From assembly GCA_964187785.1 (NCBI GenBank), contig OZ076409.1, positions 39,558,001-39,622,000 on the forward strand: DNA of 64,000 nt, read 5' to 3'. Under the pieces are notes generated by a model that was not told the origin of the DNA, ran no database searches, and saw only the letters and a program-made list of their open reading frames with translations. The position numbers were made by a program, and so were the translations under genes. This DNA is from Amphiscolops sp. MND2022. Lineage: Eukaryota. This document shows, piece by piece, positions 4,085 through 63,543 of the stretch (the stretch's first letter is position 1; every line of letters begins with the position of its first letter).

Positions 4085-4693
4085 GTAAATGCCCCTGGCA
4101 TCAAACTTCTCATTCTTATGCATTACTTTCATGACAATCTTATTCAATTTTATCTTGTTGATTCAAGGTACTTCTTTTCTCTGAGAGAGAAACAAATTGT
4201 CATTTGTTGAATTAGACGTGCTCAAAATTGATACAATATTCGAAATTAGGTCACATGTTACTGGCACTGCACGCAGTTCTTCTAATTGACATGTTTGATT
4301 ACATGTCTTTGAACATGTGTCCCACCAATGCGAACAGATGAAGTCAGGTCAAAAGAAAATGCCGCCGTTTTTTGCTATCACGCGAATCACTGGAAATGAG
4401 AAAAATATACCACCGCAAGGTGTAGTAACTTGGTATAGTAAGAACATCTTTTTTAAAATCTGCGGATTGTCCGATAGAACTTTCATCAACAATTGACAAA
4501 AATCTCCCGTATAGATTATTTTTTTTGGACTGAACAGTCAGTAGTTAATGCTTCACTGCTCTTCACTTTTCGAAATTGATCTGTCGATCAAAAAAATCTA
4601 TTGCAACAAGTAGATTACAGTCAGAATTACTTTCGTTGGAACATACATTTTATTGATGTTATTTGCCATTAATTGCAAGTTGATTATTTTCAG

Positions 4694-5593
4694 GTTGTTG
4701 ACTTGCTGAACAACTTATACACGTTGTTCGACAATATAATAGACGAGTTTGACGTGTACAAAGTGGAGACTATCGGCGACGCCTACATGGTAGTGTCGGG
4801 GATCCCTATCAGGAATGGATCCACTCATTCCTACAACATTGCAGCCATGTCTCTGAAACTTCTGGAAGCTGTCAAAAACGATTTCGTCATTCCTCATCGC
4901 CGACATGAGAAACTGAAACTGAGAATAGGTCTTCACACTGGATCGGCTTGTGCCGGAGTTGTTGGCACAAAAATGCCGAGGTATTGTTTGTTCGGCGACA
5001 CTGTGAACACAGCCTCCAGAATGGAGTCCAACGGAGAACCCCTGAAAATTCACATAAGCGAGCAGTGCAGAACGTCTCTGCTCTCTTTCAATGAGTTCAT
5101 CATGGACTATCGCGGTGAGATAGAGATGAAAGGAAAAGGAAAACAGAGGACTTACTGGCTTAACGGTCGGAAGTCTGACCTGGTGTCCAAAGCGCCCAAA
5201 CTTGCTGGAGGACTAGCGCCCAGTGGACGACACAGTGTTTGTGCCCTGCCTAGTAGCTTCAACGAATTCTCCGTGAATGACTACAATGGCCATTCCAAAG
5301 ACAATGGCACCACTCTGATGAAGTCGGCACCGGCTGCATCTCAAGAACCCCGACATTCTCACGTTGCATGCTCTACTCCTAACGAGCTAATACACAATTC
5401 CACCATGGACGACTCTGTTTTCGGCACGACCCCCACTCCGAGTGTGAATGGAAAGGGGGCTAAAAACTTTTTCAGTTACCCCAAAAGCAAACTCAAACGC
5501 CAACTTAGTTCAGAAATAGTTACGAGTGTCAACTCGGATCCCTCTAACGATGCACATCTATCCCCCCAAGAGATCGAAAGCAGCAATTGCTGA
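4694..5593 (+). CDS. Receptor-type guanylyl cyclase, terminal exon (catalytic domain plus low-complexity tail); upstream exons not found in window
   Basis: Acceptor ttttcAG ends at 4693. VVDLLNNLY...[16 protein letters not shown]...LRIGLHTG...[25 protein letters not shown]...MKGKG. The Glu of KVETIG and Cys of RYCLF are the GTP-specifying residues. Confidence 0.96.
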
Positions 5594-33019: not shown

Positions 33020-36000
33020 ATATTTTCGTCAATTCCTGCATCGGTCGATTGTAGATTTTTGTAGCGGTTTTTATTTTTTCAATTTTCACAAACTTGTCTG
33101 GGCCGGTGTAGACATGTTGAATTTTAGCCAATGGCCACTGCAGTGGGAGAACATCATCGTCAATTACAAAAACAATGTAACAATGTCATCAACTTTTATT
33201 ATAGAAGTTTCTAGTCTTCTTTTATTTCTCTCTTGTAGGGAGAGTACATACTCTTTGACCCATCTTTTCCAAAAATGAGAGACCATATTTTGGATTTGTG
33301 CCCATCCTCTTGTCGGTGATTGTGTACTGTCAAGATTTTTGGTACATTAGTAGTCTGTCTCTAAAGGTAAATTCTCCAACTTTCCACCCAAGCAGAAATG
33401 AGCAGGAGATAAGAAAAACTCGTCATTGGAACCTTTTGATAATAGGCAGATTGGTCTTCAAATCAAAATCAATTCAATTCGACAAAGTAGCATACATAAT
33501 TTTTTTAGGAGAGAATTTTGATTCCCATAACTTTTCGGAGATATATCTTTGCACATTTGATTGCTGATTCCCATAGGCCACCATTTGAGGAGCTCTTGGA
33601 GGGATGAAGAACCACTTGATGTGCAAGCCTGCAGCAAGGAGTCAGAGTATTCAACTATTAATATCTTTTGCAGGTCTGCTTTTTCTTTCTACGAACCAAC
33701 AAAGTTTTCCCATTGTAATTATGAAAAAGTTAGTTCAACCTCTGCGAGAGACGAATCTTCTAATGGCTGCAATACATGCTGCTGTACTAAGATCAGATAC
33801 TACTTCCAGGTGAACTGCTTTATTGGCAAAGCACACAAAAGTGCTAAGTACAATTTTCCAGGAGAACTTGGAGTATTCCTACAAAAAAGGACCTGCATAC
33901 TCTGGGCCTACATCCTCAAAAGCTTTCAGAGGAGTGTCAACTCTTGCTTTTGTAAGATTTCCCATCAAAACGAAAACTGGCTTCAAGTTGAAGCGATTTC
34001 AATTGACACAATTCATTATCAATTTCCGAACTAATTTTATACAACTGGGAATCCAAACACGATTTCTAAAATGGGCAATTGTTTAATTAGTCCCACCATG
34101 GAATGTCGGCTGCTGGAAATTCTATACAACTAGGCCTGCGAGAAGACTGTCTTGAGGAAATAGTCGTTGAAACTTCGTTTCTTTGGGTACCATTGCATGT
34201 ACTAAACTTCTTCCAGCACAAAGAATACCATTATCGAAAGGGGGTAATCTGCATATTTGACTATTGGGCTCCACTTGTTGCGCAATTCTTAGAGTTTGGA
34301 TTTCTACCGAACATCGTTTCTACCGTTCCTGGTGAATCAAAACTATGACGGACTCCGTTAACTCTGGGGAGTAATGTATCTCGGTGAAACAACCACGTTC
34401 TTCTGTAGTTGATTGGTAAAACTTCTAGCATAAGCCAGTATTGGGGGTACTTTGTTTAAAGAGTTGAATTTCGACAAATCGATGACAGCTTTTTTGATAT
34501 CCCTGAGAGCCATAGAGGTATGATGATTGGTATTTTCTGATGTTTGAGTCATTTTTTCCAGCTCTTCAGGCGTTTCACCAAATGAAAACTATTATCGAAA
34601 CTCTTCTGTTATTAACCACTTCGGACTATTCCACAATTATTCATGCCACTTTTATTTGTCAGTGTTTTTTCCTCGAAACGCAGGATCCACAGGAATCTCC
34701 TCGGAACACGCATGTTTCCATTTCAATTTTTTAAACTTTGAATTTCACTAATTTTGTTTGAACTAAAAGTTGACCAGCGAAATGGTTTATTAGACAACCG
34801 ACAGAGAACTATTTTCGATTTATTCCACGCGAAGGTTTCTTCAAAAACAACTGGCGTTTGACAAAGTGACTTGATAACAGGCTGAAATAACCTAGTGCCT
34901 AGCAGAGCAGCATATAATTCCGATGTTGGAACAGATTGTGATTTCACGGGGGCTACCTTGGTTTTGGAAACAAGCAATGATGACTTCCACCTGCCATGAG
35001 AATCAGTGGCAACAATATGAATGCTGGCGGCGTAAGCTTTTTCTGATGCATCGCAGAAGAGATGCAACACAATTTTGTCTGAGAATCCATGAAGTAATAC
35101 GATTCGTTGCAATTCCACGTCCTTTAAAGAGATCAATTTCGATCTCCAATTCAAATGATGGTCGGCATGTTCGAAAGGAAGGTGAGCATTCCATGAAAAA
35201 CTTGCTGCCCAAGACCTTTGCATTAATTGTTTCAAGAAAATGGTAACTGGTGATAACCAACCCAATGGGTCAAAGATTTTTGAAATGTCACTGAGCACAT
35301 GCTTTTTGGTCAAAACTTTTCCTTGAAAATTTTCATCTTCGATGTGGGGAACCTTAAAAACGAAGCGATCTTCGCTGTGTTGTCAAACAATACCGAGCGT
35401 TTTCATTGTATGGTCTTTGTCTAAAACCTCTTTGCCAATTGCTTCGCGGAACTCAGGCAAAAAGTCTAGAGTATTGCTTGATTCGTTCGAATTCCACTTG
35501 CGGACATCAAATAGTCCTCATTCAAGAGATTCTACTAATTTCTTTTGGAGTATCCGAGCTTCATCAATCAAATTGGTTCCAGTGTGAATGTCATCAGCTT
35601 AACAACGTCTCAATATAGCTCTTTGCACCTCAGTGGGTACTACCGAAAAATTGGCGCATCCTCGAAAAGACAGGATTGAATGATACGATGAGGACGCTAT
35701 GGCATATGTAACTCGGGTCATGCGTAATGCTGCAATCTAACCATTAGCTGTGAATCTCCAAAGAACCTGATGGAATTCTAATTGGATTTATCCAGCTCAA
35801 CTTGCCAGTACTTTTTCGCTACTTCAGCTGATAAAGCAACCTTGAAGAAACGCAATCGTAAAAAAATATTAAAGAAATCACCTTGAAGTTTGGGGCCAAC
35901 TAGAAAAAAATCATTTGGTGAAAAACCAGTAGTCGATTTAGCACTAGCGTCAAATACAACACGCAACTTGGTGGTCGTACTAATTCCTTTCAACAGGCAA

Positions 36001-36780
36001 TGATGAGGCAAGTAGCAGTTTGTAGAATTATTAGTCTCCACGGGTTGGACCTTCTCCAAGTGTCCAAGGTTGGTGAATTCTTGAATGAAAGATGAATACT
36101 TTCGGTAAAGGTCGACATTGTGGCGCCAAGTGTCTTCAAGACGGACGAAACGCTTCATTGCGTTCGCTTTCGAAAGACCTAAATTGTGGGGTCCCTCTTT
36201 AAATGGCATCTGTACTACAAAACAACCGTCGTCACTGCGTCTTGTAGTGCTATCGAAGTGCTCTTCACAACGACGCTCTTCGAAAGTTAAGTGCCTAGTT
36301 TCACGCACCTTTTTTGTTTCCCAAACTTTCAAAAGGAGTTTGTCAGAGTCACAATTTGGAGTTTTAGTCATATGGGACAAAACGTTGTTACTGCCAGACG
36401 TGTAGACAGGACCAGACACAACCCAATCGAGCATGTAATCCCGAATGCACAAGCCGTTATCCTTTATTTTGTTATCAAGCAAAATATCATCTACAAATGA
36501 ATTCATACTTGAATAAGTTTTTTTAGTTGTGTGTTGATCAAGGAGCAGTTTTTGAGGTCGATGAATCAATGTGTGGTGTTTCATTTTGCACTCACGGCAA
36601 GTGAACTTAGATGGGCACGCATTTGATGAGTGTCCTGATTGGAAGCAGCTAAAACAGAGTTTTTTGTCTTTACCGAACTTTTGTCTATGAGAATGACACA
36701 TTCCTTTGGGTTGTGAAGAAGTGTAAAGGCGATAATCCTGCTATATAGATTCACACGATGAGCCTTGAACTGCATAATTC
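33020..36780 (-). mobile_element. Decayed BEL/Pao LTR retrotransposon polyprotein
   Basis: Gag knuckles CFSCFQSGH...CPSKFTCREC..KHHTLIH; RT YLPHH...STTTKLRVVFDASAK...VGPKLQ; Pao region TKKHVLSDISKIFDPLGWLSPV and LHLFCDASEKAYAA...LLVSKTKVAP. Fragmented integrase lies at lower coordinates. Confidence 0.93.
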
Positions 36781-43045: not shown

Positions 43046-43880
43046 ATTGCAAGAGTAAAGAATTTGAATTGGAATCTTTAGGCTTGCAAACAAAATTTTA
43101 TTCGGTTATTTAACAACGAACTGACTGTGACTTCTTGTAGGAAAATTTTCTCCCCGGGACCACGAGTCCCGGTTATTTATAATCAACCTAGCATGACGTA
43201 CATAAAATTGGATGTCATCAGTCTAATTTTAGCAACAAATATTCTAAAAATAGACACGAGGGACAACGTGTCTTTACAAATATAATAGCGTAATCCTAAT
43301 AATAGTAACTGCCATGACGTAATTGATTTACACACGTTCATACATATGTAGCAACTACGATCATGATTGTTCATGTGGCCCTTCAGGCCGTTCAATTGAG
43401 TTTCATTAGCAACCTTACATGTAGAGCAATTCATGTTGAATTACATGTAACAGATACGTATAAGGATGGTACATAGACATATCATTACAGTGCACAGGCA
43501 AGCCTTATTTGCTGAAAGCGCAGCATAGTGCGTTCAATATCGTGGATTCCAAGACCATACCTTTAACCGTGCAAAATTGGCAAATTACGTCATTTGTCCC
43601 GGATTCCACGGATTTAGTCCTGGATTCCAGTAACATATGCTTAGCTGTACGAACTGTCGGCATGCAGCGGTGTCCCGGATTCCACAAAAACGTAAGTTTT
43701 CCGAAATGAACCAATCAGATTGCAGAAATCGTAAATTTCCTGGATTCCACGACTTTATGCTGGACGCGATACGCGGCATTTCTTGTTTGAATTAAATTCA
43801 AGTGGATGACTGAACAAACATGATATTATGCACTACTTTTCGTATATTAATTCAAAATGATTCAGACAATCACACCAATA

Positions 43881-47293: not shown

Positions 47294-47533
47294 TCAGCGC
47301 ATCCTAAATCCGAAAAACGGATCGATTCTTACACTTCCACTGGGCCCGTTCCTTAAGACACAGTTCTTCCTGCAAAGGGGGCACGCAACTTCTAATCTCG
47401 CCTGGGCCCACCCTCTGCGCTCGTTGTCGCGATCCTTCACCTCAATCCAACGATTGCGGCATCCCTCACAGAGGAAGTGTTGGTCGTGGAGGCTCGTTCG
47501 TGTTTCTTCATGGCAGACCATGCACTGAGGCAT
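47294..47533 (-). CDS. Small RING-finger protein (79 aa), putative E3 ubiquitin ligase
   Basis: ATG in aaaATG context. Pattern C-x2-C...H-x2-H-x2-C-x2-C-x3-W...C-P-L-C-R, including the Trp and CPxCR typical of E2-binding RINGs. Confidence 0.78.
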   Translation of the reverse strand: MPQCMVCHEETRTSLHDQHFLCEGCRNRWIEVKDRDNERRGWAQARLEVACPLCRKNCVLRNGPSGSVRIDPFFGFRMR

Positions 47534-47979
47534 TTTGCGATATAATATGAAGGTATCAAAATTATGGTTAGAAAATTTTTTTCGAAATTATGGACGTTTT
47601 TGCTAGGCAGTATTCCAAATGAATGATAACCAGACTGGTTAAACCAGTAACCGAAATTTCAGCAAACATTGAAAGATTTCAACTAAAGGGAACGTCCCTT
47701 TTGTTCACGGTACCTTGGCGTTTTTTCACACTGAAAGTGGCTTTAATGCATTACTCGCTTTCTTTAATGAACACGCGGACACTGATAAATAACCTTTTTG
47801 GGCTAACAATTATTTAGAATCCTAATTACGGACAAGTGAGATCAACAATTTCTCTTTGTTCAGCTATTGCTATTGAACCGTGAATCAGAACAATTTGAAG
47901 CTGAATATGAACATTGTAAACGCGACCAGGCCGCCCATATTTTGTCCCCGGTGTCCCAACCATCATGACATGTAATAGC

Positions 47980-48897: not shown

Positions 48898-49511
48898 CTA
48901 CAAAGTGATCTGAGAACATTCTTCATCTAAGTCGTCGTCGTCATCATCAATGTTGTCAATTTCTCCGGCGAAAGTGTCATCATCATTCTCGAAAAAGAGT
49001 TTTGGTAATCTCGTTTGTCCATTTCTGTATCGTTTGAGATAAGCCACAGCCGATATATTCTCGTTTGATTTTTTCCCTGATATTTGATCAAGGAAGAGTG
49101 GTCTCATATCATTTACTCTGGCTCGACGAAAATTACTTCCGGGGGCGATGGTGTAATCTTTGGGGTCTAACAACGTAACTACTTTTTTGACATCCATGAT
49201 AAAATTCTTCTTCAAAAAAGTTAGACCTCCTTGGGCAAATTTCTGAGCAATTTGTGAGTATTGAGCAGTTTCTTTTTTCTGTTTTGCTGTGAGTTGCGAT
49301 GATGGGTATTGACTGTCCGAATCTGAAGACTGGGACGTGGAAAGTCTTAGTTTTTTCGCCGGCGGCATCTTCTTTTTCAGTTCTTCAATTTCTTGCACAG
49401 ATCCTGTGGCGATTACTAGGTCTTCTTCGTCTTTGACCAGAACGAAGCAATTAGGCAGTCGTGAATGTGTCTTCATGAGGGCGTCTGCTTGATCGTGTTC
49501 AATGAATATGC
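48898..49511 (-). CDS. C-terminal part of the transposase gene (second half of BRCT-like domain plus acidic tail), separated by a 1-nt frameshift
   Basis: One extra G in the run at 49511-49515 gives LIKLINEMGGIFIEHDQADALMKTHSRLPNCFVLVK...TFLKKNFIMDVKKVVTLLDPKDYTI, a BRCT-like pattern. Contains NLS-like PPAKKLR. Confidence 0.72.
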
Positions 49512-52277
49512 CCCCATTTCGTTGATAAGTTTAATCAGAACATCCTTCGTTAACGAAATCCCATCGACTACCCCTAATCTTCCAATTGAAGTGAACCTCA
49601 TACCACTTAAAAGTTGGGAATCGGGATGCGATTTCCCGATTGCAAGAGAAGTCGAGGAAATTGGGGTCTTGCAAATTTCGAGGTATGTTGGTCCGGGGTA
49701 TTTTGCTTCCAAATCATCAACAAGTTTCTTAAGTATTTCAGATATTTCCAAGCCATCATGCTTCATTGTTTCCAATTCAATCGATGCACGGAGGAATTTT
49801 CCAAATGAAGATGACAATTCCAGGAAAAGAGGATCTTTATGGTAAATATTACCGCCACCACGCATGGTTTTTGTCTGGAAATAGCGATTTGCGTGATGAT
49901 TGGATTTTTCAAGCCCTTCGCACATGTGGTCAAAAGGTCTTTCCACAAACCCTCCTTCTACAATCTGCGGCATCATTGCGAGCTTCAACTTATATGGTGT
50001 CAATGAGCATTCACCAAATAACAAAATGCTTGTCTGATAATATATTTCAGCCCATTTCTTGTAGCATTGGGCGTCAAACTGCTCAGATCTCAAGAGAATT
50101 GCACAGCGGTTCAGGCTGGAGCGCAGCAATTCACATGCATCTGTCTTCGAGATGTATGGATTGGCGGATGTCTTGTCACTAGGGTGAGGCTTATCGAAAA
50201 GTTCTGGGAGAAATTGTTTTAGTATTTGATCACTAGCAGCTGATTCACTCCCAATAACAACATCGTTTGTGGGATCCCAAACATCTTCAAAAAGATTCCC
50301 TATTGAACAATCATTTGCGCCAGCCAATTCTTCTTTTTCTGCTATAATAGATAGGGCATTACTTCCGGCTAATGACACACTGTTCACAGTACCAACACCA
50401 GAACCTAGTTTTGTGTTCACATTGAACTGGAAATATGGCCTTTTTGCATCACGTCGTGTAAGATTTTCTTCAAAGGCTTTGAGTGAGGGGCCATAATCGG
50501 GATACTTGTCAGTGATTATTTTCTGCGCCACTCTCCTCAAGTCGTTTTCAACACATCTGGTGATCATGTGCGTCGGGTCAGGGCATATACATCGCACGTC
50601 TTGGAAATAAACAAGGGATGTTTTTGGCAGTTCCTCTCGGAAAGGTATCTTAAGATCGGTTCTCAGACCTGTTTCAGGATGGCAATTTGTTGGCAAAAAG
50701 CTATTATCAGGAACATGAAGTGGCATTTTTGATTCGAAATTCGTTTCACAGGAAATTCCAAGTATCAAGCGTAGCAAAAATGGTGTATCTCCACTGTAGG
50801 TTAGTTTAACACCACGATCTGACAACTCCGACGTTTTCTGGTAGAGCCAACCCGAACTTTGATCACCAGCTATAGTTGGTCCAAGGTTCTGTTCCATCGC
50901 GAATCGGCTGTCTTTTCCTCGATACGATGCAAAACAGAACACTGAACTTGATGACTGGCAACTAATTTTTTCCGATAACACTCGAAAGGCAAAACGGGTT
51001 GTTTCCAGGCCTCCAATTTCACAAGCGTCGCCCCAGATATCAATTCTCAAACCACATAAATCATACATTCCGAGCAAGTATGCGGCCAGCTCAACACATT
51101 TTATCAGATCGCATCGGAAACCGGAGAACGTTCTTTCGGGATGGCATAGTGAAACAAAATAGGTCTGGATTTGAGCTGTTGATTTCTTGATCAAGCGTAT
51201 ACAAGGTACTACGTTGTATCCCAAGCCAACTACCGAAAGTTTCGATCTGATAAGTTTTATGACTGCCTCTGTATTTCCAGTTTGAGCAGTAAGTGATAAA
51301 ATGTCACTGAATTCCTTGGTCGATCCTCGATTCTCAAAAAGTCGGTCGATTAGAATTTTCACCACATTCACGTCTTCCTTCTTTGTGAATCCCTGGTATT
51401 TCCGTTCAACAATGTTGTCTTTCACTTGTTCTACAAACTCAGTGAACCCAATTTCTTTATTATCGTTGGCCTCATCGATGACCTTTTTCCAGAAACAAGT
51501 GGCTGCTTCTTTGTTCAATTTTTTTGTTCTCCTCTTTTGGGGGTATGGGCTTGTCGCTGCATCAAGGTACATTGTTGGTGGTGCATGCGAATCCATTGTT
51601 TCAAGGTCCATTGTTGGTGGTGCATGCGAATCCATGGTTCCAGGGTCCATTGTTGGTGGTGCATGCGAATCCATGGTTCCAGGGTCCATTGTTGGTGGTG
51701 CATGCGAATCCATGGTTCCAGGATCCATTGCTGGTGGTGCATGCGAATCCATGGTTCCAGGGTCCATTGTTGGTGGTGCATGCGAATCCATGGTTCCAGG
51801 GTCCATTGTTGGTGGTGCACGCGAATCCATGGTTCCAGGGTCCATTGTTGGTGGTGCATGCGAATCCATGGTTCCAGGGTCCATTGTTGGTGGTGCATGC
51901 GAATCCATGGTTTCAAGGTCCATTGTTGGTGGTGCATGCGAATCCATGGTTTCAAGGTTCATTCTTGGTGTTGCAAGCGAATTCATTGTTTCAAGGTCCA
52001 TTCTTGGTGTTGCAAGCGAATTCATTGTTTCAAGGTCCATTCTTGGTGTTGCAAGCGAATTCATTGTTTCAAGCACCATTGTTGGTGGTGGTGAAAACAG
52101 ATCCGAGGTACGTATTGCAAGGGGATTCAAGGTTGGTGTTACAAGAAGAGGAAAATTGAAAGTATCTTCGTAAGGAATCAAATATCGAGGGACGAAGCAT
52201 TCCACAAATCTCTTCCTTGCGTCGGTCCATTGGAAATCCTTGAACCCTCGGAAGATTAAAAACATCGCAATTTTTCC
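49473..52277 (-). CDS. RAG1/Transib-like DDE transposase, exon 2
   Basis: Acceptor ttcttttcAG ends at 52278. Ordered motifs IDIWGDA (D at 51027-51029), TYSGDTPFL (D at 50787-50789), CPDPTHMITR, VSLAG, LTPYK and CEGLEKSNH (E at 49908-49910) parallel RAG1 ESCDG / GYDEK / DALHCD / ITNY / SEGNESGNK. Confidence 0.8.
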   Translation of the reverse strand, partial: GKIAMFLIFRGFKDFQWTDARKRFVECFVPRYLIPYEDTFNFPLLVTPTLNPLAIRTSDLFSPPPTMVLETMNSLATPRMDLETMNSLATPRMDLETMNSLATPRMNLETMDSHAPPTMDLETMDSHAPPTMDPGTMDSHAPPTMDPGTMDSRAPPTMDPGTMDSHAPPTMDPGTMDSHAPPAMDPGTMDSHAPPTMDPGTMDSHAPPTMDPGTMDSHAPPTMDLETMDSHAPPTMYLDAATSPYPQKRRTKKLNKEAATCFWKKVIDEANDNKEIGFTEFVEQVKDNIVERKYQGFTKKEDVNVVKILIDRLFENRGSTKEFSDILSLTAQTGNTEAVIKLIRSKLSVVGLGYNVVPCIRLIKKSTAQIQTYFVSLCHPERTFSGFRCDLIKCVELAAYLLGMYDLCGLRIDIWGDACEIGGLETTRFAFRVLSEKISCQSSSSVFCFASYRGKDSRFAMEQNLGPTIAGDQSSGWLYQKTSELSDRGVKLTYSGDTPFLLRLILGISCETNFESKMPLHVPDNSFLPTNCHPETGLRTDLKIPFREELPKTSLVYFQDVRCICPDPTHMITRCVENDLRRVAQKIITDKYPDYGPSLKAFEENLTRRDAKRPYFQFNVNTKLGSGVGTVNSVSLAGSNALSIIAEKEELAGANDCSIGNLFEDVWDPTNDVVIGSESAASDQILKQFLPELFDKPHPSDKTSANPYISKTDACELLRSSLNRCAILLRSEQFDAQCYKKWAEIYYQTSILLFGECSLTPYKLKLAMMPQIVEGGFVERPFDHMCEGLEKSNHHANRYFQTKTMRGGGNIYHKDPLFLELSSSFGKFLRASIELETMKHDGLEISEILKKLVDDLEAKYPGPTYLEICKTPISSTSLAIGKSHPDSQLLSGMRFTSIGRLGVVDGISLTKDVLIKLINEMGAYSLNTIKQTPS
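51570..52090 (-). repeat. Coding minisatellite: 13 x 39 bp (MDPGTMDSHAPPT / MDLETMNSLATPR)
   Basis: Directly visible in the DNA and in the 978-aa ORF translation. Confidence 0.97.
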
Positions 52278-52679
52278 CTGAAAAGAATATTTTTTCGAAA
52301 ACGGTTTTTGTGGTGGATATGTAAATGTTTCAGTTATGTATTTAGTAAAGGTATTTTTAGTTTTTGGGGATGAGGGCAAAAAACAAAGATGAAGAGAAAA
52401 AAGTTTCAAAATGAATTTCCAAACTTATTTTCATATCGTGGTTCGTAGTTTTTTCCAAAATGAATGCATTGATTTCGAATGCGAGCGACCACTAAATTGC
52501 AAGAACGTGGCGTGTAGCCAATTGGTGGTGGACAAGAGAAAACGCGCGGTTTGCACAATTATATCAATTTAAATGAACATTCACAAATCTCCAAAAGCAT
52601 CCAAAACGCCAGCGAAGTACGACTTTTACGAAAAAGATAGACACTTGCAAAAATGGTAATTAGAAAAAAAGTTACTTAC

Positions 52680-52907
52680 TGCTATACACACAGTCGGTTT
52701 GCTTTGTCCTTTCATGGGAATTCTCCGGAGTAAGTCTTTGTTATTTAACCCACACCCGGCGAATGCATCGTCAATGATCTTTTCGAATTTTCTGTATTTG
52801 TTCGTGAATCGTTTCTCGGCCATGACTTCGAACATTTTGCTGTCGATAAACAGCAAATTTTCATCGATTTGTACAGAATGGGCATTCCAAAGTGCTAAGG
52901 GGTCCAT
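52680..52907 (-). CDS. Transposase gene, exon 1 (76 aa)
   Basis: ATG at 52907 (MDPLALWN...KPTVCIA). Donor GTAAGT begins at 52679, phase 0, matching the phase-0 acceptor before 52277 (GKIAMFLIFRGF). Confidence 0.72.
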
Positions 52908-53239
52908 TAAAAGAGCGTTGATATGAGATTTCAACAACGTTGTGTTCAACTCAACTAGTGATGAAGATGTATGAAGGTCACAGTGACTATCTGAAATATA
53001 TTTGCTAAATGACACTTTGATTCAGAAGTTGAGATTGGGAGTTAAGATGAACCGACACGTTCACAAAAACAGGGACTTTCAATACCATAATGAAAAGAAG
53101 CTCTTGAACAACTTTCTCTTTACGTGACGTGGAAACCCTATTTTCGTGACTAATAAATTTTAAAACCAAGCCAATACAAACTGATATGATTATGGACGTA
53201 ACACGAAGCTCATTCGTTAAAGTAAAGTAGTCAAAAAAC

Positions 53240-53720
53240 TGCAGTTTAAAAAAATTTGCCAGATTTTGCTGGCAAGCCAGATTTTTTTAAATGCCAGATT
53301 TTTCTAAAACGTCATTCAAAATTGAGCAATATTTCCATGACAATAATAGGGTATATTAGATTTTAAATATTGACGTACTACCCCCTTTGGTAGTTGTTTT
53401 CTCACAGTTTAAGATATGTATATGGTTTCCACGACACATTTATAAAGATATGGTCCTACTTTCCACAGTCGCTTTCGTGGCCATCGAACAGTGAATGCTA
53501 TTTTGGTGGAATCCAGGACAATATGCTCAAATTGGTGGAAACCAGGACAATACAGTCAGATTTAAATATTGACGTACTACCCCCTTTGGTAGTTGTTTTC
53601 TTACAGTTTAAGATATGTAAGCGGTTTCCACGACACATTTATAAAGATATGGTCCTACTTTCCACAGTCGCTTTCGTGGCCATCGAACAGTGAATGCTAT
53701 TTTGGTGGAATCCAGGACAA
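53240..53720 (-). repeat. 199-bp-family repeat block (orientation of right arm)
   Basis: tttaaatattgacgtactaccccctttggtagttgtttt at ~53362 and ~53561. Confidence 0.9.
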
Positions 53721-53901: not shown

Positions 53902-56900
53902 TCACGAAAAAAGGGACCGCGCTGTTGGGTCCTCGTAATCGAATTTCAATTCTTCGAAAGGGCTTATATCTCTGATAGCCCTGAAGCAGCAAACTCGGGA
54001 CTGGTCATAAAGCAAAATGTCAGTTTGCTTTATGTTTGCATCTTTGGAACAGTGGTTAATGAGGCGTCCCAAACATAGAATATTTGGGTGACTTTCACAT
54101 ATCTCGGAGGAAGCGTTGATCAGTCTCCGTCCGGGACCTTTCACCTGGAACAAAGAAGTTTCAAGAATACCTTACAAAAGCCCACAATTTTCAACAGATT
54201 TTGGAATGAAATGATCCAAAAATGAATTAGTTACTAGCTGTCGTGTGAGCATATTGAAAATTATGTATGTGGTACACAATTTGGAGTCGTATCTGATCAC
54301 AAGGCTTTACAAGTTCCAGATGTTCTTGATGGTGTGCTAGATGATCTAGATAGATCTTGTTGCAACGATGACTTTTGTGTTGTAGGTCTTACTGCGATGA
54401 AAGGAAGCGAAGTTGAGTAATTGTAAATTCAGGCAATGTTTGTGTAAAAGTCACTATTCACTAAAATAGCAAATCAGATAAAAATGGCAGTACTTTTGGT
54501 TAGTCCCTAACCAATAGTAATGCCATTTTTAACTGATTTGCCATTCTACTGAATAGTGACATTCGCACGTACATTGCCTGAATTTACAATTACTCAACTT
54601 CGCTTCCTTTCATCGCAGTAAGACCTACAACACAACAGCATACTAAAAAATCCTGTTTTGAAAAGCAAAAAAGTTTCGTGTACTTTCATTTAGCTAGGTC
54701 CTAGTGAACTAATAATTTTTTTCTTCTTCACTTTTAGCTCTCTAGGTCCAAAATTGATAAAAGAACAAATACTCATACTTTTTAGACTTTTTAGATTTTT
54801 TATGTGTCTTCACTCACTTGGTATGTATCTAACAAATAAACTTTAGATTACGTACCTCCATCAGATATTCAGACTGTACGCCTTCCATCGCCAGGGCTTG
54901 TGTCAATGTCATTTTCTCAAGTATTTGACCGTGGTAGTCAAGCACAATCTCGTTTTTAAAAAACTTCTGTGTGCTGACCACTCCGCGTCCATAAGATTTG
55001 AAATTGGCTGGACAAACGCCTGGCCAGCTCTGCGTGTCACATCGTTCGAATAGTAAGGTCTGACACTCGAAATCCATGTTATGTGCCATCCCTTTATACA
55101 TTATTTTGACAGAACCATCACTGCCCATTCGTCTCGAATCTGGATTTTGTAGCATAGGTAAAACCAACAGAAACACTTTTCTAATATCCTGTTTGACGTC
55201 TTCTGGGGTTGTCCATTTCTGCCTCTGGAAAAATCCTTCGATTCTTTTCTCCAAGATGTTCAAGTCACATTTCCCGTTCATGTATTTGAAGAACGTTGTG
55301 GCTCGAGCTGACTGTCGTGCGTATCGTTGAGCATCTTGATGTTTTCTCACGCATGTTTTGATGGTATCCTGGTCAAATTCATTGCCAAATTTTCCTTGCA
55401 CTTCCCTGATTTGATTTTTCAATTTTGGCAATCGTGCTTCAGGGTCGTCAACAATTGGATAGATGAGTTCCAATTTGAACTTCAGCTGATTGGCTGGTTT
55501 TTCACATTGTTGAAGTATCTGAAATACATGCTTTCGATTAAATATATGATCTGTTACACTAGAACTACAATGGTTTAGTAGATGTAGGTTTTTCAATCGA
55601 AGTTGTTTTGAAAACTCCGAAATATATAAAAATTTAAATGTCAAAAAAAAACAAACGTACAGGAATCAAATACTGGTCGACAACATGGCTTGGTCTAAAA
55701 CAAGACTTCCCAACAGAATTGACGAACAGGAGCTCTGTCACGACTGGTCGGTCATCACTTTTGGAGACACATCGTTGGAATTTCACACCTTGGGTTTTGT
55801 TGAGAAAATCAGGTCTCGTGTGGCTGGCATACTCAACCAAACCTTCGATTAACCAGCGTGGTGTCTTGTAATGTATTCGAGAAACAGAATCTGCAAAAAA
55901 GACATTTATTGAACATGTAAATTAGTTTCGAGTTTTCAGTTTTTTTTAAAATTTCATTTGTCAGAAAGACAAAATAGGCCCAAAATATTTTCGCCTTTAA
56001 GAACTCTAATCAATCGGAAATCTGACACCAAAACAAAATTTATTGAAAAAACAAACAAAGTTATTTCACAACGCCATTCAACACTGAACAATATTTCCAT
56101 GACAATAGGACGGTTTATAAGGTTTTAAATTTTGACGTACTACCCCCTTTGGTAGTTGTTTTCTTACAGTTTAAGATATGTATATGGTTTCCACGACACA
56201 TGTATAATGATATGGTCTTACTTTCCACAGTCGCTTTCGTGGCCATCGAACAGTGAATGCTATTTTGGTGGAATCCAAGACAATATGCTCAAAATTGTTG
56301 TTTTCTTACAGTTTAAGATATTTTAAAACGCAATTCGAACATTGAGCAATGTTTCTAATATTTCTGTTGTAGAGAAAAGAATAGTGCGAACTGTGTATTA
56401 TGGCAAAGTAAGGTCAACTGACCCTTTCATCTATTTTGCCATTTTCCTTCAGAATGGCAATTATTGGTTGTTTACCAACAATCTAGATATCGCCACTTAC
56501 AACTTTCTCACGCTCTGCCATATTCCCTTCTTTGTAAATGAAAGGGCAAAGTAATTATTATCAACTAGGAATGTTAATTTTCGGCACAGCCGAGAATTGC
56601 CAAAAACGCCGAAACCCAATAAATTTAGAGTGAAGGTGCCGAAATCCAACTTGGAAAAACATTCGGAGCAGGCTATTTTTTTACCAATGCGCCATCGAAC
56701 AGTGAATGCTATTTTGGTGGAATCCAGGACATTATGCTCAAAACGGTGGTGGAAACCAGGACAATATATCCAATTGTTGTTTGGATCATTCAAAATTGAT
56801 AGCTACTTTGATTTTCATCATATGTTTGAAAAAGTCAATAAAAGTTTAAGAGGTTAAGGGTTTAGGTTATGCATAAATACTTACTTTCATTTGGCTCGAT

Positions 56901-57629
56901 GGAAAGTGGTATGTCTTCATCATCCGGGTAGTCTCTCATATGCACCACGGCTTGAGCCAACTCGTGGACAGTGATATTGCTGATTTCTTTGTCCAACAGG
57001 CCAGCAACGCCAACAAACAAAAACAGGTATGCCACCAGACTTCTGAAAAAGTTTATCTGGGTCTTCTTCGGGGCGCTAACATTCTTTTTGTAACGGCTCG
57101 TTGTGGCAACTATAAAGGATTTCAGCCATTCTTTGGCTTCATCCGTCTTCAAGTCGGGTTTGCTTTTTTTTGCAGGGGGAGTTGTTTTGACTACATTGTA
57201 GACTCTTTCTTCAAACGAGTCAACAGGTTGTTTCTGACTCGAGGTCGGAACTGTGGCGCTGGTTAAACCCACGGCATTGGAAATGTCAAGATTAGGAGAA
57301 GGAGTTACCGCGTGATCTTCGACCGGCTGATTTGGCTCGTGATGCTCTTCTTGCATAATCCCATCTGCATTGTAAGCAATCGAGCTCTGCGAGCTCTGCG
57401 AGATCTGCGTGAAAAATGTCTGCGAGCTCTGCGGGTAGACTGTTGCATCGAATGAGGGTGTCGAATTTGTCAAAGAAGCTTCAGAACTTCCGCTGAGCAA
57501 AGGAGTTGAGGATTCGAGCAACCATGGGGTCAAGTTTGTCAATGGAGTCGAGAACTGGCTTAAAACAGATGAGTAGGACAATGGTAGATCTTGAGCAGGA
57601 GTTTGATTTTGGGGATTTGAATTATCCAT
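53902..57629 (-). CDS. Four-exon gene (57629-56885, 55890-55661, 55518-54856, 54144-53902; 626 aa): Ser/Thr-rich N-terminus, degenerate tyrosine-recombinase-like region, C-terminal SETD8-type SET lysine methyltransferase
   Basis: All three introns are GT-AG with matching phases (1,0,0); total 1881 nt with no internal stop. SET motifs YGRGVVSTQKF...VLDYHG, GRLINHCSKDAN and FRAIRDISPFEELKFDY. Confidence 0.85.
54222..54312 (+). mobile_element. Tiny degenerate Gypsy RNase H fragment in intron 3 of the SET gene
   Basis: Reads LLAVV...ENYVCGTQFGVVSDHKALQ (with disruptions). Confidence 0.6.
54375..54635. repeat. 261-bp foldback palindrome (MITE-like) in intron 3 of the SET gene
   Basis: ttgtgttgtaggtcttactgcgatgaaaggaagcgaagttgagtaattgtaaattcaggcaatgt is perfectly inverted at the right end. 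Inner arms are imperfect; centre ggttagtccctaacc. Confidence 0.92.
56090..56770 (-). repeat. 199-bp-family repeat pieces in intron 1 of the SET gene (~56090-56330 and ~56690-56765)
   Basis: gccatcgaacagtgaatgctattttggtggaatcca.gaca.tatgctcaaaa is present at both sites. Confidence 0.88.
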
Positions 57630-58189
57630 TAGTTATTCAGTTGCAACCAAGCGATTCAAAAACTTGGAAGGAACTGTGATGTATATTCGAGAAGACTGGA
57701 AGCTACTGATTGTGAAAATGGTTTGAAAGAAACAGCAAATCTTTATCAAACAATCGCTATCAACCAAAATCGAGCGTCATCTTTTTTAATTATAGGCGGC
57801 GTTGAAATGCCCCAAAGATCTCCTAATTAATTTCAAAGGTGAGTATTAATTGAACCTTAGGATAAACAGTAAGCATCGTCCCTACTTCAATCCTAAGCGG
57901 TTTCAACTTGCCGCCTCATCATAAGCGGTGTCGACTTGACGCCCCAATTGAATATGCCATCAATTGCCAGGCACTACTTTACTTTGCCAGTGGGTGTTCA
58001 TTGGATCTGAGCAGCAACAGTAATTAAGCATCACCTCTGCTTCAATTATAAGCGGCGTCATTTTGCCCCAGCTTTGAAATTGACGCAGGAAATGGAATTT
58101 CTCTTTATTTCCCCAGTGGACGTTAATTGAACTATTGATAAGGTGACTATTCCAGTCAGTCTCAAACTATTCAACCTTTAAACGCAGTA

Positions 58190-60923
58190 ATGCTTCTTCA
58201 AAAGTTCGAAACGAACGAAGTTGTCCATATCCTGGACCCTCTAACATTTATTTGGGAGCTTGCAAAAATCACTGCAATCATGAGTGACTGGAGTGTCAGA
58301 ATCAAATGGATGGAGTGGTCTACGAGAAAAGCAGTTGACATAACAGTGCCAGAAGTCGACAGGGAAGATGAGGTTGCTATAACATTTCAATACTTTTTTT
58401 CGAAATATTTTCCACAATTCTCTCATTTCTTAGGCCATAGTTCCGATGAAACACTAAACAGGTTTTGAGGACAAAAAATACACAAATCGAACTTTAAAAT
58501 TGAATACCTTGCTAAGCTCATACGTCGGAGTGAACAAACTAGAACCGGAAGTTTAACAAAGTTTGCCAAACTTGGACGACAAGCCAGATATTCGAAAATG
58601 CCAAATCAGTAGAAAATGCCAAACAAGAAAATCATAAATTTCCCGAGGGCAAAACCGAAAATTGAGATTTAAACCTTGACATACTACTTATAAATAGGGC
58701 TAGCATTTAAAATCAAAAATTGAGAAGTCCTACTTCCAGCATGGAAATTCAAAAAATGAAAGTTAAATCATGGTTCCAATTTAAAAGATTTCGTGATATT
58801 TGTGTCCCAATCGTGAGTAAGAAACTTACTCACGATTGGGACCAAAATTAATCATGACTAATTTCCCCTTTGAACTACTTTTTTAGCCGAAATTCGTTGC
58901 TATTAGAAGTTAGAGAGACAAAACATGTCCTCAATATCTTTCGTGAGGACAAAAAGGAGGCCTTTTAGTATACTAAATTGAAAAAAGATTTTGTGATATT
59001 TTGGTCCCAATCGTGAGTAAAAAAATTACTCACGATTGGGACCAAAATTATTCGTGATTAGTTTCACCTTTGAATTGCTTTTTCAGGCAAAATTGGTTGC
59101 TACTAGAAGTCAGAGAGACAAATCATGTCCATAATATCTTTCGAGCGATTAAAAGCCGGCCTCTAAAAATGCTAACCAATCAAAAATGTACCACTTCATC
59201 AAAATCTGCCAGTTTTCAATTTTTAGCCAGAGATAAACAAACGTCAGAATATTCTAAAACGTCATTGAATTTTGAGCAAATTTTCCATGACACTAATACG
59301 GTATATCAAAATTTCATTATTGACGTACAATAATACAGTCAGAATTATATATTGACGTACTACCCCCTTTGGTAGTTGTTTTCGTACAGTTTAAGATATG
59401 TATATGGTTTCCACGACACATGTATAATGATATGGTCCTACTTTCCACAGTCGCTTTCGTGGCCATCGAACAGTGAATGCTATTTTGGTGGAATCCAAGA
59501 CAATATGCTCAAAATGGTGGAAACCAGGACATTACAGTCAGATTTAAATATTGACGTACTACCCCCTTTGGTAGTTGTTTTCTTACAGTTTAAGATTAGT
59601 ATGCGGTTTCCACGACACATGTATAACGATATGGTCTTACTTTCCACAATCGTTTTAGGACCATTCAAGAACGAACTCATTCGTTGAATGTTTATGGAAA
59701 AATGGCAGTTTAGCAAAATCTGCCAGATTTCAATGACAATCCACGTGTTGATATCCTCCACATAATTTTTTTTCAAAGAAACCCATGATTGAAGTTGATA
59801 GAAATTTGAAAATCGAGAAGTAATTTTCAAATTTTTTCAGCGACGTTGGAATATTAGAAAAGCCCAAAAACTGGATGAATCTCTGAGAAAGAAACGGGGT
59901 AGAAGCTTGCCTTTCAATCCAAGGAAGTTAATGCGCAATGACGAAGTTTTCTTTTGGCAATCAAATGACGAAGATTGTGACTGTATCGGCGACTTCGAAA
60001 ATTGCGAGGTTACTTGCTGCGGGTCAGTTGTTACTGCGACAGTGATGATCAACGATCCGTTCCTGCGACAGTGCTTGGTCGTTGATGACGAAGGAAAACA
60101 ATTTTTTGTCTCTTATCGACAATTACGGGCAAGCTTGCCTGATGAGACTGCTCCAGATGACACCAACGAAGAACCTGAATCACCTCCGACCATAATCGAT
60201 TCCAGGCCTCCCGTACCAAAAAAGCGATGCCCCCCAAAAACAATACCTTTTGTGGATGCAGTATCTTTGATACCACACAGTGACGAGAATGTTGAGTTGA
60301 AGTATGCGCCATGCTATAACAACATCCTGAAAGTTGGTTCTCTCACCAACTATGCAAACGCGGCGTTTGAAGTAAAAGAACTGTTCTTTGATTGCAGCAA
60401 ACGAAAAGCGTTTGTTAAAATGATAGGAAAAACAAACCCCGATATTGAAGTACGCATGCCCGCACTAGAAGTTCAAGTTATCGAAGACGAAATAGAAGAA
60501 TTCAATATCCACATGCTAGTTCATCCTATTAACCAAGCATTCGCGGTGTTTTCAGCAGTCAAAAAGATGGTTGGATTCGCCCAGAAAAAACATTCAATGA
60601 CAAAATCATTGATTCCAGCGACGCCATTGACCCGTAAAATGTGTGGTTTTGAAACGACGTCCTCGAAAGAAACAGTGAAATTTTCTGGGGATATCAGCAG
60701 TGACTTCAAAGGGTCTAATCAGTCATGGGACAGTGTGCTTGGGAAACGATGGGACGTGATCGCAAGTAACAAAGAAGGTGAAGATGCTTTCATCAAAATA
60801 TTGAGGTTCACTGAACATCGTGAATTCGGATTTTTCATGATTCGATGTAGCTTCGTAGCATGTCGTGGTCACTTCAAGTGTTCAGATAGTTATCGATCCT
60901 TATATCAAACCAGTTTACAATGA
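58190..60923 (+). CDS. Two-exon gene (58190-58372, 59841-60923; ~421 aa) with Tudor/Agenet-like beta-barrel domain(s) and an unassigned C-terminal domain
   Basis: Exon 1 KFETNEVVHILDPLTFIWELAKITAIMSDWSVRIKWMEW fits F-x3-E-x-V...D...W-x2-A-K-I...V-x-I-x-W-x2-W. Phase-0 donor (weak GTtgct) joins strong acceptor ttttttcAG, giving ...EDE/RRWNIRK. Exon 2 is open for 360 codons. Confidence 0.65.
58790..59738 (-). repeat. Right arm of the long inverted repeat, with two palindromes (58804-58842, 58998-59048); lies inside the predicted intron of the Tudor-like gene
   Basis: Reverse complement of 45325-46195. attttggtcccaatcgtgagtaa-aaaaa-ttactcacgattgggaccaaaat. Confidence 0.92.
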
Positions 60924-61701: not shown

Positions 61702-63543
61702 TTGGCTAATCGGTCAGTAATTAAAACGCAGTCTTCCACAAGCAAAAGCGAGCGACAAGTCGAATCTGATAATCACGCAGAAATGAACGATGATATAATT
61801 CAAGCGGCAATTATGCCACCAATAAAAAGCCCTATTTGTTACTCCATAAATCAAATTGAAGTACTACAGCAACTGGGAAATCACACGTTTGCAGCACAGT
61901 ATGAATCAGACGAATTCATGCAAAAAATTATCGGATTGCTCAAAAGACCAGACAGCACGAAAATCAACCGCCTCCCCACACCATGGAGAGAGAAGTACAA
62001 GTGCCTCAGCTTAGATGCCAACGACTTCGTCTACATGGACGAAAGATTAGTAATCCCCAAGACGCTAAGACCAATCATCATGAGATCACTGCACTACGGG
62101 CACCCGGGGCGAGATGCCATGTTGGCAACAATTTCTAATGTGTGGTGGCCAAGACTGCATCGAGAGGTAGTCACAATCGCCAGAGAATGCCCCCAATGCA
62201 AAGAATCTGGTTAGAACATAAAAACAATACTTAGCCAAAAACAAATAGGGAAATTGCCTGAAAGTAAAGAATGTAATCAAGAGATAGCAATTGACTTCGC
62301 CGGCCCATTCCAAAACGCCATAAACGCAAAAAAGTACCTTTTAGTATCAGTATATCACTTTTCGGGATTGCCGGAAGCAAAGTTTTTAAGAAAGCCAACC
62401 ACAGAAAAGGTAATAGAAGTTTTAAAGAACTATATTACAAGGCACGGAATTCCACAGACCATAAGAACGGACCCGGCGACAAATTTCCGAAGTAGGCGAT
62501 TTAGGAATTTTGCCAAAAACGACTAATCCGCCACATAGAATGTCCAGAAAGGGACCACCGCGGAAATGGCAAAATAGAGAGACTAAATTCGTTTCGGAAT
62601 ATTTCAGATCAACCACAGCCAGCCATCCAACTCAGCGACACAGACTTCGAGTCGGGACAGGACTCAACTATCATGGTACGCGAGAAGACAAGAGGCACAA
62701 AGCTTGAGAGGGCCTACAAGAAAAAGAAGGGGGTACTGCTCGAGCAATCGAATCATACCATAAACTTCCTGCCAGCAGGCAGAAATCAGCCAACGATCAT
62801 CTCCAAACGCGACGTGGCGAACAACACCAACCAACCATGCTGCTCCCGCGAAGCAACAAAGCAACTAGCGTCACAAAATACAGGCACAGCATTGGCGGGA
62901 AACAAGCCATTCACAAGGGAGGACGACAGCAGCTCAGAAGTGGCAACAAGAGATGACCTGCCAATCACCATGAACTTGCCAGAAACATCACGCCCGCTAA
63001 CTCCAACAACAGAACAGCGACGAAAAAAGAAATCAGCACTAGAACAACTAAAGCAAAAAGTAAAGAAAACAAAGGAGGGGAAGAAGATGAAAAGAGCAAA
63101 ACAAAATCAAAAACCAGAACAAATCACAGAAATCGGAAGCGAATCAGAAGAAGAGATGTGGCCACAACAAGAAGCCGAACCCAATATCAAAGAAAAAAAG
63201 CAAGACAATGAAGAAGAAGACAACAGAAGCGAGCAAAACCCAGCAACCATGATAGACACTACCAATCAAAACGAAGTACAACAACTGCCGAACCCACCAC
63301 GCCGAGGAAACAGAAACCGGCCCAAAACCGACTTCTTTGGCAACAACATAATGGTTTCACAAATAACCAAAAGCCCGAGAAGAGAAGAAGAAAACGATGA
63401 AAACTAAACCTACAAACTACTCTGTAAAATCTACAAACTACTCTTAGGAGAAGAAAAATTTTCAGTTTCGTAAATTGGCAATTGTACAATTTATATTATT
63501 ACACGCCTGTACAATAAATACAAATTTGTGTTAAATCGGGGGA
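61702..63543 (+). mobile_element. Decayed Ty3/Gypsy 3' half: integrase (stop at 62212, frameshift, deletion), charged C-terminal extension, candidate polypurine tract
   Basis: LHYGHPGRDAM...WWPRL...CPQC zinc finger; IAIDFAGP; IRTDPA; GKIERL. ggggga-TGTG at ~63538-63547 could mark the start of the 3' LTR. Confidence 0.88.

Follow-up and report, generated by a model that had tools for sequence, protein, structure and literature searches.

Results

A recombinase-like module and a SET domain in one transposon gene

We analysed a stretch of 64,000 nucleotides from Amphiscolops sp. MND2022 (contig OZ076409.1, positions 39,558,001 to 39,622,000; hereafter the window), in which a 47,092-bp element with 21-bp terminal inverted repeats carries a minus-strand gene at 57629-53902 that is predicted to fuse part of a dead tyrosine recombinase to a SET methyltransferase domain. 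Joining four predicted exons (57629-56885, 55890-55661, 55518-54856 and 54144-53902) yields 626 codons without an internal stop. GT-AG dinucleotides lie at the splice sites, and the donor of exon 1 reads GTAAGT. Exon 1 (56885..57629) encodes a low-complexity N terminus (amino acids 1-160, 46% S/T/P/Q), which varies in sequence between families, and then the first half of the recombinase-like module; exon 2 (55661..55890) encodes its second half. Exon 3 (54856..55518) holds a helical middle domain (amino acids 326-490) and, from 55023, the start of the SET domain, which ends in exon 4 (53902..54144) with RLINH and FDY motifs and the stop codon. The first-pass annotation had quoted peptides that come together on splicing, and all are present on the minus strand: FRSLVAY...ITVHELAQA at the end of exon 1, and WLIEGLVEYASHTRP and LLFVNSVGK within exon 2.

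This gene model is predicted by homology. Its splice junctions are supported because one paralogous family of the same genome is intronless and encodes the protein in a single 680-amino-acid frame, and because three further families lack intron 1 and have the position of intron 2 in common. Starting exon 3 at 55614 instead would yield a peptide like a decayed box II/III. We rejected this start, as families B and D splice at the equivalent of 55518 and the intronless family leaves no space for the peptide. KQLRLKNLHLLNHCSSSVTDHIF, directly 3' of exon 2, resembles a decayed box II/III and belongs to intron 2 by homology. A one-base difference in a T-run of intron 2 divides the 20 copies examined into two sets, and intron 3 contains a palindrome (54372-54638) with 132-nt arms that are 91% complementary around a 3-nt gap.

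The predicted fold matches half of a recombinase catalytic domain

The module covers amino acids about 165-325 (55661..57137, minus strand, spliced across intron 1), as delimited by the fold of a paralogue and the profile register, and its last helix extends a few residues into exon 3. A tyrosine-recombinase fold had been proposed here from sequence patches, with structure prediction against the integrase catalytic fold as the suggested check, and similarity was seen. The model predicted for a paralogue (477 residues; predicted template modelling score (pTM) 0.88) matched chains of XerH, XerD and XerA (PDB 5jjv, 1a0p, 5dcf and 5hxy): the structural top 50 contained five chains from four different recombinases, all on one range of the model, and no other non-SET fold. 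The counterpart ranges, XerH 172-303 and XerD 111-237, span the initial 120-130 residues of the catalytic domain, up to and including its major-groove helix, and the helix, beta-hairpin sheet and groove helix of this N-terminal part appear in the predicted model. These matches have 8-15% identity and a root-mean-square deviation (rmsd) of 3.6-5.1. In sequence, hhalign gave module versus XerD a probability of 2-3% and a score of 21.0, and none of 30 column shuffles scored above 17.2. With this template the SET region reached 18.3, near the module. Patches of the module are colinear with L-x-x-Y...R-P and LF-x-x-x-x-G of XerD, and a conserved insertion, R-F...V-T-E, has no XerD counterpart. The likeness is thus beyond chance for the modelled fold and weak for sequence, and we regard descent of the module from a recombinase as very probable.

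Neither PF12012 nor PF00589 matched the module in any of the 10 members for which all 8 Pfam families were shown, and both were absent among the best 25 of the 94 Pfam families listed for 149 members; a positive control, the Crypton-type locus L105 described below, was matched at 1e-23. A PDB sequence search with the module profile returned no match, all scores in an Atlas search for the module stayed below 0.8, and tblastn against phages found nothing significant. Among the significant rows listed by Foldseek against the PDB and viral models, and by a second comparison with VIA, there were SET matches alone; because the SET domain fills these lists, they are not evidence against a recombinase fold. 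Structure prediction from the single sequence was unsuccessful (predicted local distance difference test (pLDDT) 33).

Catalytic residues are lost and the domain is truncated

Leu212 (56994..56996, minus strand) occupies the position of the box I catalytic arginine, as the first-pass annotation had claimed, and is aligned with XerD R148 in the profile alignment. Across 73 homologue rows this column is Leu in 35, Met in 9 and Arg in 2. At columns 87-92, in the beta2-beta3 turn where the catalytic lysine would lie, no column has Lys in more than 9 of 69 rows, and the turn of the window gene has none. Box I and the strict HxxR...GH...Y motif occur in none of 150 homologues, where two loose matches both fall in the first helix; a downstream HxxR or H...Y box is lacking, as had been noted, and these 150 sequences include no relative of the suggested kind that retains R-K-H-R-H-Y. 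The structural match ends at XerD 237 and XerH 303, before these motifs.

In each of the 17 junction-spanning chains the groove helix is followed, at the same truncation point, by a new helical domain, and HxxR is lacking. We conclude that a different helical domain stands in place of the C-terminal half of the recombinase, which would carry HxxR, His/Trp and Tyr, and that the catalytic loss is old and shared, because the transition is the same in these 17 chains and the motifs have no match in the 150 sequences. The earlier description of an inactivated recombinase fold is accordingly right in that the module is dead and needs amending in that the fold is not whole. Towards the N terminus no counterpart of the core-binding domain is evident in the S/T/P/Q-rich, variable sequence.

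What is kept includes Arg314 and the start of the helix (55661..55696, minus strand) that the aligned ranges would equate with the XerH major-groove helix alphaK. The Arg314 column is R or K in 55 of 61 homologue rows, and five other basic columns are kept at 76-93%. A motif after the groove helix, L-K-R-Q-V-A, may be a worn LRH-x-F-A, a weak lead that neither structural range nor hhalign aligns.

The module is conserved under selection

Five families of the Amphiscolops genome keep the module, and a profile of module plus middle domain recovered 160 clusters at E <=0.001, 150 of which were listed and analysed. The members of one cluster, 31 in number, are spread over many contigs. The 34 rows that cover the module have a median identity of 29%, and module and SET domain occur together in six chains; despite this divergence the module has near-invariant columns, and these are non-catalytic. 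For the 160-cluster family the only Pfam model matched is the SET domain. A word-based homologue search with exon 3 among longer proteins gave no match, and two further such searches gave 3 and 31 close matches.

Against 10 diverged copies the module has a ratio of nonsynonymous to synonymous substitution rates (dN/dS) of 0.29-0.56, and thus below 0.6 in 10/10 comparisons, which share the window gene as reference and so are not independent (an eleventh locus had no match). The corresponding SET values are 0.15-0.22 in eight copies and 0.43 and 1.35 in two broken copies. Among six near-identical copies three keep the whole frame and three have small frame-breaking indels. Judged from these sequence comparisons, the module is under purifying selection and is not a decaying relic. 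No donor tyrosine-recombinase (YR) element was found. The seven PF00589 matches of the genome all lie outside the element; five of these loci were read and showed no intact recombinase-SET fusion, and the remaining two repeat one of these five in tandem.

The SET and middle domains

The placement of the module upstream of a SET domain was borne out by a C-terminal Pfam match (E 2.5e-7), with S-adenosylmethionine-binding and catalytic motifs intact. By sequence the domain is SET8/KMT5A-like, with about 25% identity to KMT5A/SET8 and a different N terminus. At the SET8 product-specificity switch, Y334, the window gene has Phe (FDY); nine homologue rows extend this far, and 8 of them have F or W. 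The middle domain is helical and basic and belongs to no known family.

The carrier is a young cut-and-paste transposon

The left 21-bp terminal inverted repeat lies at 43483..43503 (plus strand) and the right end outside the window at G000:C1:39648574, with a 2-bp target duplication, in agreement with the cut-and-paste type assumed in the first-pass annotation. Six copies were examined, and from 43483 onward all of them match the window at 99.1-99.6%. The genome contains 868 occurrences of the terminal 20-mer and 0 of a control, and 12 of 13 end pairs, six of them in short non-autonomous elements, are flanked by a 2-bp target duplication. Exon 3 has 151 matches listed in the genome, the top 33 at 97-100% identity, from a search in which the best 150 of 721 candidates were scored. 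The element is young, multi-copy and recently spreading. Inverted sequences at 45.3-59.7 kb, considered as its ends, were rejected as internal repeats.

A putative DDE transposase gene lies at 48901..53021 (minus strand; frames 52629-53021, 49476-52424 and 48901-49530). Its frame has 983 amino acids in the window copy versus 1175 in 4 of 6 other copies; the window copy is frameshifted near its C terminus, or contains a sequencing error. Candidate D, D and E residues (WGD, SGD and CEG) are conserved in all three families compared. By eye, an alignment of the three transposases contains neither the C(2)C nor the H(3-4)H motif of the CMCT clade, and there was no Pfam or PDB sequence match; the enzyme possibly represents an unnamed lineage. 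Head to head with the fusion gene, in the same position in families A-D, is a partner gene of about 430-450 amino acids (58142..60920, plus strand). Its product had no Pfam or PDB match; its N terminus has what we take to be a Tudor-like look, which neither database confirmed. Transposase, partner gene and fusion gene are all present together in families B and C. Among the long frames of the element there is no second recombinase half.

A 9-bp box recurs across the element

The sequence GYGGAAWCC occurs 61 times in the 47-kb element, compared with a shuffle mean of 0.9 and with no occurrence in 43 kb of flank. Sites lie near both element ends, in a 199-bp internal repeat (53362..53720; boxes at 53424, 53506, 53535, 53623 and 53705) and in repeat pieces within intron 1 (56125..56760; boxes at 56186, 56268, 56717 and 56749). 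The box is also enriched in families B-E. A family-specific helix tracking a family-specific box was not supported, as GYGGAAWCC is common to all families.

Discussion

On balance we favour, with modest confidence, a role of the module in gripping DNA and so tethering the methyltransferase to chromatin, probably the element's own; binding of the module to DNA or nucleosomes is in itself rather probable. The retained half of the recombinase, which includes its DNA-contacting part, would grip DNA through the major-groove helix and conserved basic residues and would hold the SET8-like domain on chromatin, probably that of the element. The SET domain would methylate a histone lysine, for which H4K20 is the nearest guess, and this methylation would keep the element expressed or mobile. 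The mark could be self-restraint as well as escape, because excerpts of PMC9406493 link H4K20me3 to transposon silencing. It is possible, though we would not expect it, that GYGGAAWCC, a candidate binding box, is read specifically by the module. A fuller scheme, in which the halved recombinase reads this box and the SET8-like enzyme marks the 47-kb element protectively, beside a JmjC-like eraser and the partner protein, is likewise speculative. Several observations weigh against specific targeting: XerH makes most of its base-specific contacts through its N-terminal domain (PMC5241119, in the excerpt consulted), of which the window protein has no evident counterpart; the middle domain is basic too; and the boxes could instead belong to the transposase.

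The chief rival, which we consider less likely and yet serious, is that the recombinase-derived module is a scaffold for protein interaction or folding that would pack against the middle and SET domains or bind a partner, with targeting left to the transposase, the middle domain or the zinc-finger protein of the element. The high pTM of the 477-residue model suggests fixed domain packing, the R-F...V-T-E insertion has no XerD counterpart, the core-binding domain is not evident, and the head-to-head partner gene travels with the fusion gene; protein-protein binding has also been proposed as an alternative for DUF3504 (PMC3212892, in part). Against a scaffold, the kept part ends with the DNA-groove helix, at whose start Arg is R or K in nearly all rows, and the lost part includes the subunit-swapping helices of XerH. 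Convergence on a common helix and beta-hairpin arrangement of other origin would fit the low identity and high rmsd of the structural matches, the low hhalign probability with a SET score close to that of the module, and the lack of a listed Pfam match for the module. We consider it improbable, given that five chains from four recombinases fall on one model range with no other non-SET fold in the top 50, and that the patches are colinear with those of XerD.

Two further readings are very unlikely. The half-domain might still cut or bend DNA for transposition, in trans or with new residues, and invariant-looking H64 (90%), R116 (91%), N147 (90%) and T141 (90%) could be seen in this light; the inverted ends and 2-bp duplications are nevertheless the mark of a DDE enzyme, the element's long frames lack a second half, and the genome's PF00589 matches lie elsewhere. 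Least likely of all is a functionless version of the relic idea raised in the first-pass annotation, in which the remains of a captured YR element would simply be decaying in a SET gene. All catalytic residues are gone and half of the near-identical copies have broken frames, but the relic reading is contradicted by dN/dS below 0.6 throughout, by conservation across five families and 160 clusters with near-invariant non-catalytic columns, and by the single truncation point.

Compared with XerH, XerD and XerA, the module lacks the Arg, Lys, HxxR, His/Trp and Tyr, has the C-terminal third of the domain replaced and is fused to SET. PANTHER PTHR33480 presumably comprises animal proteins in which an integrase-like and a SET domain stand in the same order and the recombinase domain is complete; no member was retrieved. 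Chordate SET proteins of 613 and 662 amino acids in Atlas clusters (scores 0.88 and 0.85) are leads only. In Cryptons the recombinase is the mobilising enzyme and long inverted ends are not known, unlike the window element with its 21-bp inverted ends, 2-bp duplications and separate transposase-like gene. Dead recombinase domains occur in host genes, as DUF3504 (ZMYM2-4, WOC, KCTD1, QRICH1 and KIAA1958), Cbf2/Ndc10 and Gcr1, for which DNA or protein binding is proposed and function is stated to be open (PMC3212892, in part). As excerpted there, these genes have likewise kept a recombinase domain that has lost its catalytic residues, within proteins of chromatin or transcription; the window module differs in being transposon cargo, truncated, enzyme-fused and without a DUF3504 match.

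DNA transposons with their own chromatin modifier include the SET-carrying HarbingerS and MuDR of Phytophthora and those with VANDAL anti-silencing proteins (as cited in PMC12730594); these belong to other superfamilies and host groups, and the relevant passages mention no recombinase-derived module. The same passages define the CMCT clade as EnSpm/CACTA, Mirage, Chapaev, Transib and Plavaka. The window element shares with CMCT, as characterised there, 5'-CA...TG-3' termini, a 2-bp target duplication (2-5 bp in CMCT) and D-D-E candidates, and differs in that window-type elements are 40-53 kb with chromatin cargo and a transposase without C(2)C and H(3-4)H. Because the transposase lacks these motifs and any Pfam or PDB match, we call the element CMCT-like rather than a member.

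A truncated recombinase-SET fusion as transposon cargo was not found in the literature searched, with Repbase Reports, subscription papers and supplements outside the search. Here a dead recombinase is joined to an enzyme whose product can be assayed, and the young multi-copy element that carries it holds a candidate box, so that function is directly testable. If the tethering role is correct, one class of mobile element has taken over half of an enzyme from another class and uses it to manage host chromatin, and the product would be a compact 626-amino-acid DNA-tethered methyltransferase. If the site-directed scheme were also true, it would parallel, in an animal, the VANDAL anti-silencing of plants, with its origin in the recombinase of another mobile-element class.

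Additional observations

Within the element, the transposase gene contains a 39-bp tandem array (51563-52090) that is missing from families B and C, and a RING-like small open reading frame (ORF) lies at 47297-47587 (minus strand; RING_XB3 E 8e-4, below the cut-off). Just outside the window the same element has C2H2 zinc-finger exons and, after them, a JmjC-like piece (L071:2535-4200, minus strand; weak Cupin_8, E 0.088). Fragments of Gypsy-like integrase and reverse transcriptase/RNase H genes are fixed in it (window 61702-63404; L071, L072 and L085), and these, like 1.6-kb internal direct and inverted duplications, are common to the six copies compared. Short non-autonomous elements of 0.8-1.3 kb at L096-L101 have the same ends and 2-bp duplications and could serve as reporters of transposition.

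Elsewhere in the window we noted by eye a guanylate-cyclase-like host exon (4673-5593, plus strand) and decayed pieces of a BEL/Pao-like retrotransposon (34723-36740, minus strand). Beside two unrelated insertions lie ORFs (L021:451-903 and L053:131-1141) that match no Pfam model and belong to a different multi-copy family. The recombinase matches at L104 and L108 are on small, ORF-rich, apparently high-GC contigs unlike the rest and are possibly not host genome. Locus L105 (G000:C3:2081591-2084773) consists of tandem 993-bp repeats, whose Crypton-type DUF3504 recombinase domains follow one another in a single 1055-amino-acid frame.
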